This document shows, in pieces, positions 32,202 to 38,544 of a DNA stretch of 64,000 nucleotides (within the stretch, counting starts at the first letter, position 1; each line of letters opens with the position of its first letter). A program made the translations under genes and the position numbers. The notes beneath the pieces are model-generated. The model had not been told where the DNA came from, ran no database searches, and worked only from the letters and a program-made list of their open reading frames with translations. This stretch comes from Rhodothermales bacterium (GTDB taxonomy: Bacteria > Bacteroidota > Rhodothermia > Rhodothermales > Bin80), in contig OZ244626.1 of the NCBI GenBank assembly GCA_965218495.1, positions 1,030,469-1,094,468 on the forward strand, read 5' to 3'.

Positions 32202-32592
32202 GAGCAGCGAGCGGGAATGACCCCGATTTCGCTGCCGTTGGTGACGCGTCGGATCGGCTGGACTGTGGTGCTACGGTCGCGAGGTGGCGATGGATGCCAT
32301 TCGTGTAGGATAGGGCACGGACTTCCGGTTTCGTCGTTGCAGACTCGCTGCTGTTCTGATTGAAAGCACCGATAAGGTTCAAAATATTGGGCCAGTCGAA
32401 ACCGCATCACCACACTATTGGGCATGTGCCGCCTTCCACCGGCAAAATGGCACCAATACACGCCGGGTACACCCATTGTGAGCACGAGCTGCCAAGCGCG
32501 TGTACGTAGATCGATGAACCGATTCGTAGCCGACTGGCGTGCCGCAGCGACCCAGAAGTGCCAGTTTGCCCGCTGTGCAGCCAGATAGCGCA

Positions 32593-34713
32593 ATGAGCAA
32601 GAAGAGCCGACACCCCCAGTTAGCGTACGAGCAAGCAGAGCATCTGCTGCAGAAGGCGGTGGGAAATCCGGCCGCGCGTTTTCGTGACGGCCAATGGGAA
32701 GCCATCGATTTGCTGGTGAGCCATAAGCGCCGACTATTGGTTGTGGAACGGACGGGCTGGGGAAAGAGCATGGTCTACTTTCTGGCCACGCGCATGCTGC
32801 GTGATCGCGGGTACGGCCCGTCGCTCGTCATCTCGCCGCTGCTCGCACTCATGAGAAATCAGGTTGCAGCCGCAGAAAGAATCGGACTGCGGGCCGACAC
32901 CATCAACTCCGCCAACCCGGATGACTGGGAAGCAATTGAACGCCAAGTCCGAAGCGGGCGCATAGATATGCTGTGGATTTCACCGGAGCGCCTGTCGAAC
33001 CAGTCTTTTGTGCAGAATGTCCTTAGGTTGGTTGCAGAGAAGATCGGCTTGGTGGTGATCGACGAGGCGCATTGCATTTCCGACTGGGGCCACGATTTCC
33101 GGCCGGACTATCGGCGGATCGTCAATGTGCTGAAACAGATGCCACCCAACATGCCTGTACTTGGCACTACGGCAACGGCAAACGATCGGGTAGTAGACGA
33201 CATAGCGCAGCAGTTGGGCGACATTCACATTCAGCGAGGGGGGCTGACGCGTGACAGCCTGGAGCTCCAAGCGGTTGTACTTCCTGATCAAGCTTTTAGG
33301 CTAGCTTGGATGGCCGAGCACATTCCGAATCTTCCCGGCACAGGTATCGTGTACGTGCTCACGAAGCGGGACGCAGATACTGTTGCAGGCTGGCTCAACC
33401 GTTGCGGGATTAATGCACGGGCCTACTATTCGGGAGTACAGGCCGAAGACCTTTCAAACAGCAACGACTATCGGCTGCATTTGGAGGGCCTTCTGCTGGG
33501 CAATAAGATCAAGATTCTCGTCGCAACGACTGCGTTGGGGATGGGCTACGACAAGCCGGATGTTGGATTCGTCATCCACTATCAAGCACCAAGCTCTGTG
33601 GTGGCTTACTATCAGCAAGTCGGACGTGCCGGCCGTGCGGTGGATCGTGCTTCGGGTGTTCTCCTGTCAGGCCATGAGGATTCAGAGATAATCGAATACT
33701 TTCGCGTTAGTGCATTTCCGTCTGAGCAGGTAATCAATCAGGTACTCGCCCTTTTGGCACGGCACGATGGACTGTCCGTTAACGGCATCAGGGACACCTT
33801 GAATGTGCGGTACGGTCAAATCAAAGACGTGCTCAAGTTTCTTTCCGTGGAGCATCCATCCCCTGTCATCAAAGATGGGTCGAAGTGGCATCGTACGCCG
33901 GTTCGGTTCAGATTCGATAAGAACCGTATTCAGCGGCTCACGGAGCAGCGGGAAGTCGAGTGGCAGGAGATTCAAGCATACATCCATACGAAGCAGTGCC
34001 GAATGGCCTTCCTTCAGCGCGCTCTGAATGATCCTGACGTCAGCGAGTGCGGACGCTGCGACAACTGCCTTGGCAGGCCGCTGATCAGCTCAAGTGCCAA
34101 TCCGAGCTTGGTTGTCCGCGCCCAGCAGTTCCTGCGGAGGATGGATTTTCCGATCGCACCCAGGATGCAAATTCCCAGGGGTGCCTGGACTAAGTACGGC
34201 CTCAGTGGCAACCTGCCGCTGGCACTAAGGGCGTCCGAGGGAAGGGCACTATCAAGGTGGGGCGACGCGGGGTGGGGAATTATTGTAAAGGAGGCAAAGC
34301 AGTCCGGTAGATTCGGCGATGACCTCGTTGATGCAACCCTAGAAATGATTCAGCGGTGGCGGCCCACACCTTTTCCCAAATGGATAACCTGCATACCGTC
34401 GGCAAGGCGCCCAAACCTCGTGCATTCATTTGCGGAACGGCTCGGGCAAAGGCTAGGTCTGCCGTTTCGTAGCGTGCTTGCCACAGCTGGCACAAGTGAC
34501 CCACAGAAGGCGCAACAGAATTCCTTTCATCAATGTAAAAACCTAGACGGGGTGTTTGCCGTGCGCGGCCGCGTTCCCAGTGCGCCGGTGCTGTTGGTTG
34601 ACGATACCGTAGACTCGCGCTGGACCTTTACGATTGCGGCTGCCCTCTTGCGTGAAGCTGGCAGCGGGGAGGTGTTTCCCATTGCGCTGGCCTTGACAAC
34701 TACGTCAGGATGA
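32593..34713 (+). CDS. RecQ-family helicase fused to a C-terminal ComF-type phosphoribosyltransferase domain (PsyrT-like)
   Basis: Walker A TGWGKS (32752-32769), DEAHC (33061-33075), helicase C motifs (VATTALGMGYDKPDV, QQVGRAGR) and a RecQ Zn cluster (C..AFL...SECGRCDNC). The last approx 110 aa carry the PRTase PRPP loop VLLVDDTVDSRWT (34588-34626). Start at internal ATG 32593. Confidence 0.85.
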   Translation: MSKKSRHPQLAYEQAEHLLQKAVGNPAARFRDGQWEAIDLLVSHKRRLLVVERTGWGKSMVYFLATRMLRDRGYGPSLVISPLLALMRNQVAAAERIGLRADTINSANPDDWEAIERQVRSGRIDMLWISPERLSNQSFVQNVLRLVAEKIGLVVIDEAHCISDWGHDFRPDYRRIVNVLKQMPPNMPVLGTTATANDRVVDDIAQQLGDIHIQRGGLTRDSLELQAVVLPDQAFRLAWMAEHIPNLPGTGIVYVLTKRDADTVAGWLNRCGINARAYYSGVQAEDLSNSNDYRLHLEGLLLGNKIKILVATTALGMGYDKPDVGFVIHYQAPSSVVAYYQQVGRAGRAVDRASGVLLSGHEDSEIIEYFRVSAFPSEQVINQVLALLARHDGLSVNGIRDTLNVRYGQIKDVLKFLSVEHPSPVIKDGSKWHRTPVRFRFDKNRIQRLTEQREVEWQEIQAYIHTKQCRMAFLQRALNDPDVSECGRCDNCLGRPLISSSANPSLVVRAQQFLRRMDFPIAPRMQIPRGAWTKYGLSGNLPLALRASEGRALSRWGDAGWGIIVKEAKQSGRFGDDLVDATLEMIQRWRPTPFPKWITCIPSARRPNLVHSFAERLGQRLGLPFRSVLATAGTSDPQKAQQNSFHQCKNLDGVFAVRGRVPSAPVLLVDDTVDSRWTFTIAAALLREAGSGEVFPIALALTTTSG

Positions 34714-34956
34714 GCCAACTGACTCGCCGCCCTATTCGATGGTACCAACATGTTGCGCGGGAATCCTGCGCGCAGGAAGTTGCTGTTTCATTGGTGACGC
34801 TGAAGATACTGCGGGTCTAAATTGCGCGCCGTGGATGGGGTGGGGGAGAGTGCGTGTGCATGTCGCACAATCCATTAACCGGCATATGGGCTCATTCTCC
34901 GTATTTTGACATTGGCGCTGGTCGAATTCGGATCGATCTGGTTTTAAAGTACCGAC

Positions 34957-36945
34957 ATGGAAGCTTCCGCTAACACCCAGGCCATCCTGCTGCTGACGAC
35001 GGCGCTGACGCCACGCGACCGCAGCGCACTAAAGCCACTGACCCCAAAGGAGTGGAGGGCGGTATGGACATGGCTTGAAGAGCAGGAGCAGCTCCCAGAG
35101 AATCTCCTGTTGGGACGCCCAGCCAAAATATTGCGAAGTTGGACCGCACAGAGTCCGCAGGTTGAAAGGATCGATGCGCTGTTGGGGCGGGGCTTACAGC
35201 TCGCACTTGCCATGGAACGGTGGGAGGGTGCCGGACTTTGGGTCATGTCATATTTGGATGAAGACTATCCCGATATGCTAAAATCCAGGCTGCCGAGTAC
35301 ATTTCCGGCAGCATTCTTTGGGTGTGGGAACCGTATGCTACTTCGCTGCAGCGGCTTATCCCTGGTAGGATCGCGGAACGCGCCTGAGGCCGACTTGAAA
35401 TATGCTAGGGAATTTGGCAGCGCTGCAGCGCAAGAGGGTGTTGCAATAGTATCGGGTGGCGCCCGGGGCGTAGATGAACACGCAATGCGTGGAGCACTTG
35501 AGCGTGGGGGGGATGTCGTCGGAATACTGACTGACAGACTGTTAAAACGGTCAATCCAAAACACGCAGCGATTCTTGAATGGTAACAATCTGGCGCTCGT
35601 TTCGGTAACTGCTCCAGAGGTGAGCCTTTTTAGGGGTGCCTTTGTTGGCGCGGCAATGCAACGCAACGACTATATCTACGGCCTATCAAGTGCCGCGGTA
35701 GTTGTTCATTCCGGCGAGAAGGGCGGCACGTGGAGCGGTGCGACCAAGAATATCAAGAGGAATTGGGTGCCTCTCTGGGTAAAGCATACACGCGATGGGA
35801 TGGCAGGCAATGCCACACTTGTGCAACAAGGCGGCAGGTGGTTGCCCGACGATATGGACCCCCTTGGCCACGTTCATCTAATCTGCAAGTCTGCTCGTAC
35901 TTCACGGTCGGCCCGGATGCCTACTGGCACTCACGCTTCATTGAAAACGCAGATTACGCAGGCGGTATTGCTTCTGACTACGCGCCTCATTGATGACGTT
36001 GACAGACGAAACGCAGTGTCTCCTATGGACTTTCGCGAATGGGGATCATTCGCCAGCTGGCTCAAGGGCCAAGGTCGTACTCCGGCGGACCTAGCAAATG
36101 GGCCGTTGGATGAGCTCTTGCAAGGATGGGATCAATCAAGCGCGTCGATCGCAAGGATCAAGGAACTGCTGGATGGTAGTCGGAAGAACAGTCTTGCCCA
36201 AGAAGAGGACGCATGGCGCGAGGCTGGGCTTTGGGTTATGACGCGGGGAGACAAGGACTATCCCAAGGCTCTCAAGGACAAGCTCAAGAGTGACTGTCCT
36301 GCTGTCTTATTTGGTTTTGGCGACCGTACTTTGCTGAGTCGCAGAAAACTGGCGGCGGTAGGATCCAGGAGGGCTGCCAAAGTAGACTTAGACTACGCGT
36401 GGGGTTTTGGCGCGGACGCAGCAACAAAAGAAAGGGTTTTAGTTTCGACCGGTACACATCGTATCGGCGAAGAGGCCATCAGGGGATCGTTGGAGAATGG
36501 TGGGGTCGCAGTCGCCGTATTCGCCGGCAACCTGCTTCGTATGGCATCCAATGCCCCCTACAGGGGATTTATCGAAAAAGGAAAATTGGTGCTCTTGTCG
36601 GCCGTGCACCCGGAGGCTAAGGCCGAGCTTGCAAAGTCGAAATTCACAAGGCAGCTCTACGAAATCGTTTACTGCCTGTCTGATGCCGCGGTGATTATTC
36701 GTTCTGGCCTCAGCGACGTAGTAATGTCCAGTGCAAAAGCGAACCTAAAGAAGAATTGGACACAGTTGTGGGTCAGAATGACAACCGATGAGAAGGCAGG
36801 AAATGCAAAGATCGTCGAAATTGGAGGCAAATGGCTGCCGGAGGGCAAAGATCTGCTCAGCCACATGCAGGACGATTTCAGTGCCAATGGGCGTTCTCTC
36901 CGGCAGGAAAGGCTACAGATTGGCATGCAAGGCCGCCTCTTTTAG
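34957..36945 (+). CDS. Tandem double DprA/Smf-like domain protein (PsyrA/ShosA-like)
   Basis: Two homologous approx 330-aa modules. Module 1 has the DprA Rossmann signature LVGSRNA...AIVSGGARGVDEHAMRGAL (35452-35475 for SGGARGVD). Module 2 aligns throughout but reads AVGSRRA...VLVSTGTHRIGEEAIRGSL. Confidence 0.8.
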   Translation: MEASANTQAILLLTTALTPRDRSALKPLTPKEWRAVWTWLEEQEQLPENLLLGRPAKILRSWTAQSPQVERIDALLGRGLQLALAMERWEGAGLWVMSYLDEDYPDMLKSRLPSTFPAAFFGCGNRMLLRCSGLSLVGSRNAPEADLKYAREFGSAAAQEGVAIVSGGARGVDEHAMRGALERGGDVVGILTDRLLKRSIQNTQRFLNGNNLALVSVTAPEVSLFRGAFVGAAMQRNDYIYGLSSAAVVVHSGEKGGTWSGATKNIKRNWVPLWVKHTRDGMAGNATLVQQGGRWLPDDMDPLGHVHLICKSARTSRSARMPTGTHASLKTQITQAVLLLTTRLIDDVDRRNAVSPMDFREWGSFASWLKGQGRTPADLANGPLDELLQGWDQSSASIARIKELLDGSRKNSLAQEEDAWREAGLWVMTRGDKDYPKALKDKLKSDCPAVLFGFGDRTLLSRRKLAAVGSRRAAKVDLDYAWGFGADAATKERVLVSTGTHRIGEEAIRGSLENGGVAVAVFAGNLLRMASNAPYRGFIEKGKLVLLSAVHPEAKAELAKSKFTRQLYEIVYCLSDAAVIIRSGLSDVVMSSAKANLKKNWTQLWVRMTTDEKAGNAKIVEIGGKWLPEGKDLLSHMQDDFSANGRSLRQERLQIGMQGRLF

Positions 36946-37236
36946 TCTGGTTACGGTGGTTGATACTGCTGGGGGCCGTGTTCTATTCGGCTCCTTAGAG
37001 CGTTGCGCCTTTTCTGACCACTATGCCAGAATGCGGAAGTAGGACCAGGAAGCCGTTGAACATGCCTCGCACAAGGGTGTTTTTGCTCAAGCAGCGCCAG
37101 CCGACGACGGCGTTGCGGTCAATCCATGCAGCCTTGGGTTACACTGCTGTGCGGGGCCACGCACGCCCTTCGTGAGTTTGCTGCGGCTCATCACATAATG
37201 TCGCCCTACCGCCCATGGGGGCATGGCGTCGTCCCG

Positions 37237-38544
37237 CTAAACCGCCAAATCAATCTCTTTGGGGTAACAGACGTAGGACTTTTCGACGAAGTTGGTCAGT
37301 GCCTTTATAGCTGGAGTGTCTGCTATGTCCGAGAGCTCACATAGCTCTCCACGCTTGTTCACGATACGGATCGGCCCTTCCGAGCGCGCGTACGCTGCAT
37401 GACGCGCGCGGTCGGTCGTCAGGTAGTAGGTAGCGTCTTCAATGGCGCTTGGAGGAGTCGATAGACCCTGTGCACACAACACGTCCGCAACGCGTTCCTT
37501 CCATTCTTCTATTTTGTGCTCTGGCGGCGCGGCATCAAGAAATGTGCACCGAAACATGTTGCGCTGAAGAAAGCGCTGGGCGAGGTCGGCCAGAATCTTG
37601 TCCGGGCTGCCGACCCACGCCTTCAGACTGCCTAATACGTCTGTGTCGTCAAGACGAAGAAAGGCGTTCAGGACGCTCTTGTCAGCCAGATCAGATTCGT
37701 GTATGGCGCGCTCCAAAAAAAACCGCAGCGGCGGCATCATGCCAGCTACTGCATCGTCGTTTTCTTCCGCCAACCACTTGCGAGCTCGCCTGATAACGGA
37801 GTAGAGTAGCTGATCACCCGCGACCACGGCCTTGTGCAGGTAGACCTGCCAGTACATTAAGTGGCGAGCAATAAGCATGTTCTCGACGGCGTAGATGCCT
37901 TTCCACTCCACGGCGACATGCGAGCCCGAACCACCAGATGTCGGGTGCACACACATGGTGTGCAATATGCGCTCGAGACCGATACGGCCTTCAATCACGC
38001 CGGTGAGATGCGAATCACGACGCAGATAGTCCAGTCGATCCATATCCAGCTGACTAGTGATCAAGTCGTGGAAAAACGATCGCTCGTACGTACCGTTAAA
38101 CATACCCAGTGCCAAATCCAATGGCGGACCTACCTTATCTGCGATTGACTTGATAAGAATGCCACTTATGACCTCGTGCGGTGTTTTCTTGATCAACCGA
38201 AACTCAAGCGTGTGCGAAAACGGCGCATGCCCAATGTCGTGCAGAAGTGCTGCGGCCATCGCTGCTTGCCGCTCTTCCCTGGAGATTGGGGTACCTTTGC
38301 CCTTCAGGATGTCTAGCGCATCTTGCATGAGCGCCATGGCACCTGTGGCGTGCGTAAAACGCGAATGCTCTGCGCCGGGAAAGACCAGGAAGCCAACCCC
38401 CAGTTGCCGTATCCTTCGCAGCCGCTGCACGTGCGGAGTCTGCAGAAGCGGCAAGAGGACATCCCGCGGCACGCTGACAAAGCCGTGAACAGGATCAGAA
38501 AGATAGACGCTATCCGCAGCCCGCATCGTAGCTACGCTCGTCAA
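37237..38544 (-). CDS. HD-domain phosphohydrolase (COG1078 / dNTP triphosphohydrolase-like)
   Basis: HSRFTHATGA...AALLHDIGHAPFSH (H...HD...D metal site) and later RRDSHLTG. The approx 430-aa architecture resembles SAMHD1/EF1143-type HD proteins. Confidence 0.8.
   Translation of the reverse strand: MTSVATMRAADSVYLSDPVHGFVSVPRDVLLPLLQTPHVQRLRRIRQLGVGFLVFPGAEHSRFTHATGAMALMQDALDILKGKGTPISREERQAAMAAALLHDIGHAPFSHTLEFRLIKKTPHEVISGILIKSIADKVGPPLDLALGMFNGTYERSFFHDLITSQLDMDRLDYLRRDSHLTGVIEGRIGLERILHTMCVHPTSGGSGSHVAVEWKGIYAVENMLIARHLMYWQVYLHKAVVAGDQLLYSVIRRARKWLAEENDDAVAGMMPPLRFFLERAIHESDLADKSVLNAFLRLDDTDVLGSLKAWVGSPDKILADLAQRFLQRNMFRCTFLDAAPPEHKIEEWKERVADVLCAQGLSTPPSAIEDATYYLTTDRARHAAYARSEGPIRIVNKRGELCELSDIADTPAIKALTNFVEKSYVCYPKEIDLAV

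Follow-up and report, generated by a model that had tools for sequence, protein, structure and literature searches.

The closest described relative of the locus examined here is PsyrTA (RqlHI), a validated anti-phage toxin-antitoxin (TA) system represented by P. syringae psyrTA and E. coli F11 rqlH-rqlI. On its own, E. coli F11 RqlH causes SOS induction, filamentation and mutagenesis, and this toxicity requires both the phosphoribosyltransferase (PRTase) domain, the toxic part that RqlH/PsyrT always carries, and an aspartate of the phosphoribosyl pyrophosphate (PRPP) loop, D663 in the sequence DIVD (PMC4670107). RqlI neutralises RqlH and co-precipitates with it; its helix-turn-helix (HTH) is dispensable, its N-terminal and DprA regions are required, and in all rqlHI pairs rqlH lies upstream of rqlI on the same strand (PMC4670107). 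Phage defence by PsyrTA has been demonstrated, and psyrA proved impossible to delete (preprint 10.1101/2022.05.11.491447). Here we describe a psyrT-psyrA cassette in a 64,000-nucleotide (nt) stretch of contig OZ244626.1 from a Rhodothermales bacterium (GCA_965218495.1), hereafter the window, in which the antitoxin PsyrA consists of two DprA-like units in tandem. In our judgement the pair is probably an accessory PsyrTA (RqlHI) TA/abortive-infection module, with the double PsyrA serving as a covalent pseudo-dimer.

Judged by sequence, the pair has every hallmark of PsyrTA except the antitoxin HTH, and because this element is experimentally dispensable for RqlI function, its absence does not exclude membership. 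The PADLOC PsyrT profile (PDLC03928) matches residues 12-704 of the toxin on profile positions 5-686 of 689 (E 4.5e-293, 972 bits). The PADLOC PsyrA profile (PDLC03927) matches the antitoxin in two stretches (E 1.5e-190, 631 bits), the best of which aligns residues 1-318 with positions 1-315 of the 398 in the profile; positions 316-398 lie beyond it. These scores are far above those of other families and bear out the initial annotation, made from the DNA letters and open reading frames (ORFs), which had proposed a PsyrTA-type TA/anti-phage pair. As in P. syringae and E. coli F11, both families are recognised by profile and share gene order and strand; the toxin joins a RecQ-like helicase and a Zn-binding region to a C-terminal PRTase domain, and the antitoxin has a SAM + DprA/SLOG core. 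Over its full length, PsyrT is 60-63% identical to gammaproteobacterial PsyrT proteins. The window pair nevertheless differs from these systems in having a PsyrA of 662 amino acids (aa) with two SAM-DprA modules and no HTH, where 400-450 aa is typical, with a single module followed by an acidic linker and HTH; in having a 243-nt spacer between toxin and antitoxin genes that usually overlap or lie a short distance apart; and in a PRPP loop that reads DSRWT. The combination of helicase, PRTase and DprA, which the initial annotation had seen as a new mix of PsyrTA and ShosTA logic, is simply the normal architecture of PsyrTA (PMC4670107).

ShosTA likewise joins a PRTase-fold toxin to an antitoxin of DprA-like (SAM + Rossmann) fold. 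ShosA is obligately homodimeric, dimerisation is essential for its function, and the arginines of the GSR and RN segments of DprA/ShosA bind single-stranded DNA (ssDNA) and are needed for antitoxin function (PMC12961424). Both ssDNA binding and RecA binding by ShosA are needed to counter the toxin, and its unstable C-terminus frees the toxin when phage halt host translation (PMC12961424, PMC11961720). In contrast to the window pair, ShosT has no helicase, and ShosA is a homodimer of a 328-aa single module that does not bind ShosT. We rejected an identity as ShosTA: the PADLOC ShosA profile is a distant second on the window antitoxin (91 bits, E 2.2e-26, against 631 bits for PsyrA), and the best profile of the toxin is PsyrT. 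Two further systems share parts of this arrangement. Iyer et al. 2017 likened the grouping of helicase, PRTase and DprA to the transformation proteins ComFA, ComFC and DprA (PMC5512222); the window has the same three-part set of helicase, PRTase-fold protein and DprA, and Foldseek ranks H. pylori ComF (7p0h, E 3.8e-4) first for the C-terminal domain of PsyrT. By contrast, ComFA is a DEAD-box rather than RecQ-family helicase and a separate protein, and the window locus has no competence context; an identity of PsyrA as canonical transformation DprA was rejected, its score of 133.6 bits lying below the TIGR00732 equivalog cut-off of 191.15. Stand-alone RqlH of the Mycobacterium smegmatis type also combines a RecQ-like helicase with a C-terminal PRTase domain, but has no adjacent RqlI/PsyrA, whereas the partner in the window is present and co-conserved.

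The initial annotation had called the architecture of the partner atypical, and this is its most distinctive feature: PsyrA consists of two DprA-like units in tandem, and an HTH tail profile finds no match at its C-terminus. Pfam detects DNA_processg_A twice, together with SLOG LDcluster4, and the two halves of the protein are 39% identical (E 2e-67), each comprising a SAM-like helical domain and a DprA/SLOG Rossmann domain. A typical single PsyrA (412-452 aa) contains a single unit of this kind, to which an acidic linker and HTH-like tail of ~70 aa are joined. In an AlphaFold model of full-length PsyrA (predicted local distance difference test, pLDDT, 84.5), both modules are predicted to adopt the SAM + Rossmann arrangement, with pLDDT values mostly of 84-95 in module 2, and Foldseek retrieves DprA (3uqz, E 1.6e-14) and ShosA (8zva, E 5.4e-13), followed by molybdenum-cofactor (MoCo)-carrier and LOG proteins. 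Searches of PDB sequences found no PsyrT or PsyrA structure, and an exact-sequence look-up of the window PsyrA returned no record. In the literature that we searched, we came across no account of tandem DprA-like antitoxins; the double-antitoxin architecture is uncommon and apparently an undescribed variant of the known PsyrTA system.

The two modules differ sharply in the motifs of the DprA pocket. Module 1 keeps GSR (aa 138-140), GGARGVD (aa 167-173), QRN (aa 235-237) and KGGTWSG (aa 255-261). A profile built from single PsyrAs gives it 390.8 bits, compared with 287.2 bits for module 2. In module 2, TGTHRIG stands for GGARGVD, QL for RN and SDVVMSS for KGGTWSG, while GSR and a GNAxIVxxGGxWLP segment, the latter present in both modules, are retained. 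The losses are not peculiar to this strain: GGARGVD, KGGTWSG and the RN within the 'RNR' segment of DprA are missing clade-wide from second modules, which keep only 40 of the 95 columns conserved in single PsyrAs and first modules, and in each of the 16 doubles examined the single-PsyrA profile gives module 2 a lower score than module 1. Second modules are also more divergent, with a mean pairwise identity of 0.41 compared with 0.51 among first modules. Module 2 has thus lost the hallmark pocket motifs yet stays under purifying selection, with a ratio of non-synonymous to synonymous substitution rates (dN/dS) of 0.39 in comparison with a metagenomic sister strain (L053/L054); the corresponding values are 0.28 for module 1 and 0.20 for the neighbouring HD gene. 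Table 1 gives the coordinates of these and the other features of the locus.

Table 1 Features of the psyrT-psyrA locus in window coordinates
Feature	Positions	Strand	Description and basis
Non-coding stretch 5' of psyrT	32202-32592		391 nt
psyrT	32593-34713	+	706 aa from ATG; ORF list, PADLOC, NCBIfam, homologues
Helicase core	32686-33639	+	DEAD aa 32-203, Helicase_C aa 249-349 (Pfam)
RecQ zinc-binding region	33943-34071	+	aa 451-493; Pfam RecQ_Zn_bind 26.7 bits, cut-off 25
C-terminal PRTase-fold (ComFC-like) domain	34063-34710	+	Predicted toxic part; model and Foldseek
psyrT-psyrA spacer	34714-34956	+	243 nt; sister-strain comparison, alignment
psyrA	34957-36945	+	662 aa; ORF list, PADLOC, Pfam, fold
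PsyrA module 1	34957-35898	+	aa 1-314; SAM-like and canonical DprA/SLOG Rossmann
PsyrA module 2	35950-36852	+	aa 332-632; SAM and Rossmann, degenerate pocket motifs
Disordered PsyrA C-terminal tail	36853-36942	+	pLDDT <50 for aa 639-662
Non-coding stretch 3' of psyrA	36946-37236		291 nt
HD/HD_assoc_2 gene	37237-38544	-	Convergent downstream neighbour of the cassette

Double PsyrAs are rare. A search of 5.8 billion proteins confined them to about 20 clusters, and in a library of representatives at 50% identity they account for 14-15 representatives against 943 PsyrA-like matches at E<=1e-30 (about 1.5%), with a gap in bit score from 338 to 298 separating double from single PsyrAs. When the modules were separated and placed in a neighbour-joining tree, all second modules formed one clade and all first modules another, which adjoins the single PsyrAs, and the topologies of the first-module and second-module subtrees mirror each other. 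These two clades with mirrored topologies therefore indicate that double PsyrA stems from one ancient tandem duplication followed by co-divergence of its halves. Two longer PsyrA relatives, P0256 and P0352, carry module 1, a partial module 2 and then an HTH; because the HTH still follows the partial second module in these proteins, the duplication probably inserted the second unit before the HTH, which was lost later. Duplication in the family is also seen at the other end of the protein, as P0344 and P0289, both single PsyrAs, carry the HTH tail in two or three copies.

PsyrT and double PsyrA are adjacent in loci L053, L055, L056, L058, L059, L061 and L062, in several arrangements. In a Rhodothermales metagenome-assembled genome, two double-PsyrA genes flank one PsyrT gene (L055, 3093-10154), and in GCA_012271185.1 one PsyrT gene is followed by two double-PsyrA genes, the group lying next to the HD gene (L056, 119-6169), so that each of these loci has two double PsyrAs, or four DprA-like modules, per toxin. 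A 3.7-Mb genome has an orphan double PsyrA of 665 aa, with SSB and MazG-like genes beside it and no PsyrT nearby (L060, 4449-7998). Elsewhere, a double-PsyrA PsyrTA lies amid Peptidase_M78 + DUF4411, DUF3800 and HipA genes of TA- or defence-like character (L059, 2176-3799 and 11801-14094). A metagenomic sequence (L057, 1-9098) encodes a 1220-aa PsyrA-like/PsyrT fusion with the domain order DprA-SLOG-DEAD-Helicase_C-PRTase, then a separate PsyrT and a 1018-aa PsyrA with ~490 C-terminal residues without an assigned domain. Finally, a single-module PsyrTA is found inside a type I restriction-modification operon of a conjugative IncF E. coli plasmid (L064, NZ_OX030731.1, 36050-43994), in the order hsdM-hsdS-psyrT-psyrA-hsdR.

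How might such a system operate? PsyrT is a RecQ-like 3'-5' helicase, and its C-terminal PRTase-fold domain is the predicted toxic part; left unchecked it could, by analogy with E. coli RqlH, bring about DNA damage, SOS induction and filamentation in a manner that needs the PRPP-loop aspartates. The DprA-like PsyrA would keep PsyrT harmless by direct binding, by ssDNA/recombination-mediator activity or by both, and phage infection would presumably upset the balance between the two. We infer the toxicity, neutralisation and anti-phage role of this particular pair from its described relatives. Tandem duplication gave PsyrA its SAM-DprA-SAM-DprA order, with a degenerate second DprA unit, and the C-terminal HTH was probably lost afterwards; module 1 has kept the canonical pocket and the ssDNA-binding residues, and module 2 the fold without them. 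As DprA and ShosA are obligate homodimers, the fused protein is most economically read as an asymmetric pseudo-dimer, covalently linked, in which one DNA/ligand site still works. The GNAxIVxxGGxWLP segment, which we take to correspond to the dimer surface of S. pneumoniae DprA, is compatible with a pseudo-dimer in that both modules have it.

Several observations weigh against a PsyrTA defence module with a pseudo-dimeric antitoxin. First, the cassette is surrounded by housekeeping genes (mutL, tilS, hpt and mutS) and lies in no defence island. Second, the Pfam Pribosyltran model (PF00156) misses this copy of PsyrT, even when the isolated C-terminal domain is searched at E<10. Third, with DSRWT in the PRPP loop the catalytic competence of PsyrT is not certain. 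Fourth, the predicted template modelling score (pTM) of full-length PsyrA is only 0.51, and the packing of one module on the other, as in a pseudo-dimer, is not confidently predicted. Finally, module 2 is basic, with a charge of +10 compared with +2 for module 1, and may still bind nucleic acid. The same charges led us to reject the idea that module 2 is an acidic DNA mimic, as it is the more basic of the two.

The low pTM, which means that no intramolecular packing is confidently predicted, also speaks for a different account of the doubled antitoxin, in which the modules divide the labour: module 1 would do the DprA-like job with ssDNA and RecA, module 2 would act as a PsyrT-binding clamp or an infection sensor, and PsyrA may still dimerise through both modules. 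RqlH and RqlI do interact physically (PMC4670107), and second modules are not merely eroded copies of the first, given their purifying selection and nine residues conserved specifically in the module-2 clade, including a histidine that replaces the RN arginine. Retention of GNAxIVxxGGxWLP in both modules, however, fits pairing of the N- and C-terminal halves equally well, and we hold a division of labour to be possible but less likely than a covalent pseudo-dimer.

The helicase portion of PsyrT is conventional. The three domains for which the initial annotation had proposed a profile search, DEAD, Helicase_C and RecQ_Zn_bind, are all found by Pfam, and the NCBIfam recQ_fam model is passed at 252.7 bits (cut-off 219.8). 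The helicase motifs GWGKS (aa 55-59), DEAH (aa 157-160) and QQVGRAGR (aa 341-348) are intact, CGRC (aa 486-489) lies within the zinc-binding region, and the best PDB sequence match is to RecQ (4q47, E 3e-53). Two other helicase families were considered and rejected. For canonical RecQ, TIGR01389 gives 284.3 bits against a cut-off of 640.2, and HRDC is absent from the Pfam matches. For DpdF, NF041063 gives 144.8 bits against a cut-off of 550, the best PADLOC DpdF matches span mainly the helicase core and score far below PsyrT, and there are no dpd genes nearby.

The C-terminal domain requires more discussion, as the initial annotation had staked its proposal on detection of PRTase and DprA domains. 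The DNA_processg_A search succeeded; the Pribosyltran search formally failed, and we set this failure aside on evidence of fold and family. The domain contains a PRPP-loop-like motif, VLLVDDTVDSRWT (aa 666-678, nt 34588-34626), with aspartates that are invariant across 33 homologues, and full-length PsyrT homologues 60-63% identical to the window protein pass PF00156, as seen in P0144 and P0192. An AlphaFold model of aa 491-706 is confident (pLDDT 87.4, pTM 0.85), and the 50 listed Foldseek matches to it in the PDB are all PRTase-fold proteins, among them, weakly, ShosT (8zvb, E 2.6e-3). Motif, predicted fold and homologues together support the assignment of a PRTase fold and overrule the Pfam miss.

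The PRPP loop itself raises a further possibility. The family majority reads DSGWT, and one could suppose that DSRWT in the window, together with the failure of the Pfam PRTase model on this protein and the decay of the cassette in two relatives (L001 and L002, see below), marks a decaying remnant, with the toxin disarmed by the G-to-R change and the antitoxin drifting. We find this highly improbable. The variant is conserved throughout one PsyrT clade and so is not a private lesion, and members of that clade pair with intact single or double PsyrAs; all other invariant residues of the C-terminal domain are retained; and both ORFs in the window are intact and evolve under constraint, with dN/dS against the sister strain of 0.26 for psyrT and values up to the 0.39 of PsyrA module 2 across the pair. 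We also considered and rejected the notion that DSRWT tracks the double antitoxin, as P0140 (DSGWT) is paired with a 638-aa double PsyrA and P0137 (DSRWT) with a 450-aa single one.

The ORF list supports the two co-oriented genes and 243-nt spacer of the initial annotation, and its estimates of ~390 and ~290 nt for the non-coding flanks agree with the measured lengths. An alternative GTG start for psyrT at 32539 is possible but unsupported; we prefer the ATG because the PADLOC PsyrT alignment begins at residue 12 and the sister-strain gene call is 706 aa. Upstream of the cassette lies a xylose-isomerase-like TIM-barrel protein (PF01261) with a twin-arginine translocation (TAT) signal, and downstream the convergent HD/HD_assoc_2 gene, in keeping with the sugar-phosphate isomerase and HD genes first named as neighbours; beyond these are mutL-tilS-hpt on the upstream side and DUF7033-mutS on the downstream side. 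The HD gene has a weak PADLOC dGTPase match over a short stretch (E 3e-4). It places the organism among Rhodothermales. As it accompanies DUF7033 and mutS throughout Rhodothermales and has counterparts of 34-43% identity in other Bacteroidota-type genomes, it is probably part of the core genome, not of the defence repertoire.

The history of the cassette can be read from comparisons at or near the HD-gene flank (L053/L054, L001, L002, L003, L004, L005, L006 and L056). The sister strain has the same mutL-tilS-hpt-isomerase-PsyrT-PsyrA-HD-DUF7033-mutS order with both cassette genes intact; nt identities of 0.91 and 0.86 for the cassette and 0.90 for the flanks mean that the cassette diverges as its flanks do, and it is therefore older than the split between the strains. 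In two close relatives, insertion sequence (IS) elements have destroyed the cassette and left the flanks intact. One (L002, chromosome OZ253559.1, 11305-19260) has psyrT cut after residue 450; IS transposases fill the next ~6 kb, and of psyrA just the final 44 codons survive. In the other (L001, 5900-12000), transposases stand in place of psyrT except for its last 50 codons, and psyrA is frameshifted. Among more distant Rhodothermales, the HD gene adjoins hpt-tilS-mutL with neither isomerase nor cassette (L004), an IS21 element and an ATPase (L003), or unrelated genes (L005 and L006). The L003 contig carries a PsyrT gene between two double-PsyrA genes at another place (L055), and in L056 PsyrT and two double PsyrAs occupy the same HD flank even though the flanking genes share only 65% identity. 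Thus the junction comparison that the initial annotation had proposed shows absence at the site in distant Rhodothermales and decay in two relatives, along with an intact copy in the sister strain.

Patchy presence, IS-mediated decay in relatives and the 60-63% identity to gammaproteobacterial copies mark the cassette as accessory and easily lost, although it did not arrive recently; the PsyrTA family is clearly mobile across phyla. The initial claim of horizontal acquisition thus holds in the long-term sense and fails as a recent event, given flank-like divergence and a small compositional shift. Cassette GC content is 0.562, compared with a window mean of 0.585 (standard deviation, SD, 0.014 in equal-sized windows), which places it about 1.6 SD low and in the lowest 6%. 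The dip seen in the initial annotation is real but modest, and the GC case for horizontal transfer is weak; spot counts for three 60-nt lines recount as 31, 29 and 31, the original values being right with the first two swapped. GC at third codon positions is 0.634 in psyrT, 0.581 in psyrA and 0.62-0.69 in the neighbours. Searches of the cassette borders for flanking repeats, att sites and mobile-element ends gave only short, chance-level matches (tRNA genes were not scanned for), and no Rfam element marks the borders.

The position of the locus between mutL and mutS might instead suggest that PsyrT is a DNA-repair or recombination helicase, like stand-alone mycobacterial RqlH, with PsyrA as a DprA-like accessory factor and a role that is not primarily in defence or addiction. 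RqlH occurs without RqlI in most Gram-positives (PMC4670107), the orphan double PsyrA of L060 lies beside SSB and MazG, and PsyrTA holds the same HD flank in a genome as diverged as that of L056. Such a role is difficult to reconcile with the patchy presence among Rhodothermales, with the destruction of the cassette by IS elements in two close relatives whose flanks are intact, with other copies that sit beside TA or defence genes (L059) or in a type I restriction-modification operon (the E. coli plasmid), or with the published anti-phage activity of PsyrTA (10.1101/2022.05.11.491447). We consider a primary function in repair quite unlikely and continue to favour an accessory TA module.

Two further elements of the cassette may bear on its control. 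The psyrT-psyrA spacer is 0.86 identical in nt to that of the sister strain, compared with 0.75 and 0.69 for the outer spacers, and its first ~100 nt after the psyrT stop (34714-34815) are near-invariant in four related sequences, conserved above coding DNA. A 14-bp palindrome, TCCTGCGCGCAGGA, occurs at 34764-34777, and another conserved block, which contains TATTTTGACA, is found about 45 nt 5' of the psyrA ATG. The spacer could possibly combine a terminator or operator with a separate psyrA promoter. A scan for sigma-70 promoters and intrinsic terminators, which may not suit this phylum, gave counts at shuffle level. A search of the spacer for structured RNA gave a fold z of 0.03, one compensatory pair among 77 predicted pairs and no covariation signal, and Rfam has no match in it at E<=1. 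A small gene in the spacer was rejected, as the overlapping ORF, 36 aa long in the window, extends to 65 aa in the sister strain for want of a conserved stop codon.

The second element is the PsyrA C-terminus, QGRLF (aa 658-662, nt 36928-36942), which lies inside the disordered tail. C-terminal Q-x-x-L-F or Q-x-x-L-x-L sequences end 108 of 196 single PsyrAs (55%) and 11 of 23 double PsyrAs (48%), compared with ~7 of 196 (~4%) after shuffling; the PsyrA of the E. coli plasmid (L064) has no such Q-x-x-L motif at its C-terminus. Motifs that bind the beta-sliding clamp include QLxLF and QLxLxL. The tail could thus be a beta-clamp-binding motif, or a degron akin to the unstable C-terminus of ShosA, and we offer this as a lead only; in the RqlHI paper and the other literature that we searched, we found no mention of this motif or of a beta-clamp motif in RqlI/PsyrA. 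A bolder version would make double PsyrA a distinct PsyrTA sub-type, with an active DprA and a re-purposed pseudo-DprA fused as a pseudo-dimer and a family-wide tail that tethers or times the antitoxin. We regard this combination as speculative and rather doubtful. If the tail does bind the beta-sliding clamp, control of PsyrT would be tied to the replication fork.

Its doubled antitoxin aside, the locus is a typical representative of a defence family already described, and its identification is routine rather than the discovery of a new kind of system. More broadly, the double antitoxin offers a natural experiment on how infection is sensed and a toxin restrained, in which half of a presumed dimer has been freed from the constraint of binding ssDNA or ligand and is still under selection. 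Being a single chain, double PsyrA may lend itself to structural study of the PsyrT-PsyrA complex, and it separates the structural contribution of the DprA fold from the functional contribution of its pocket.

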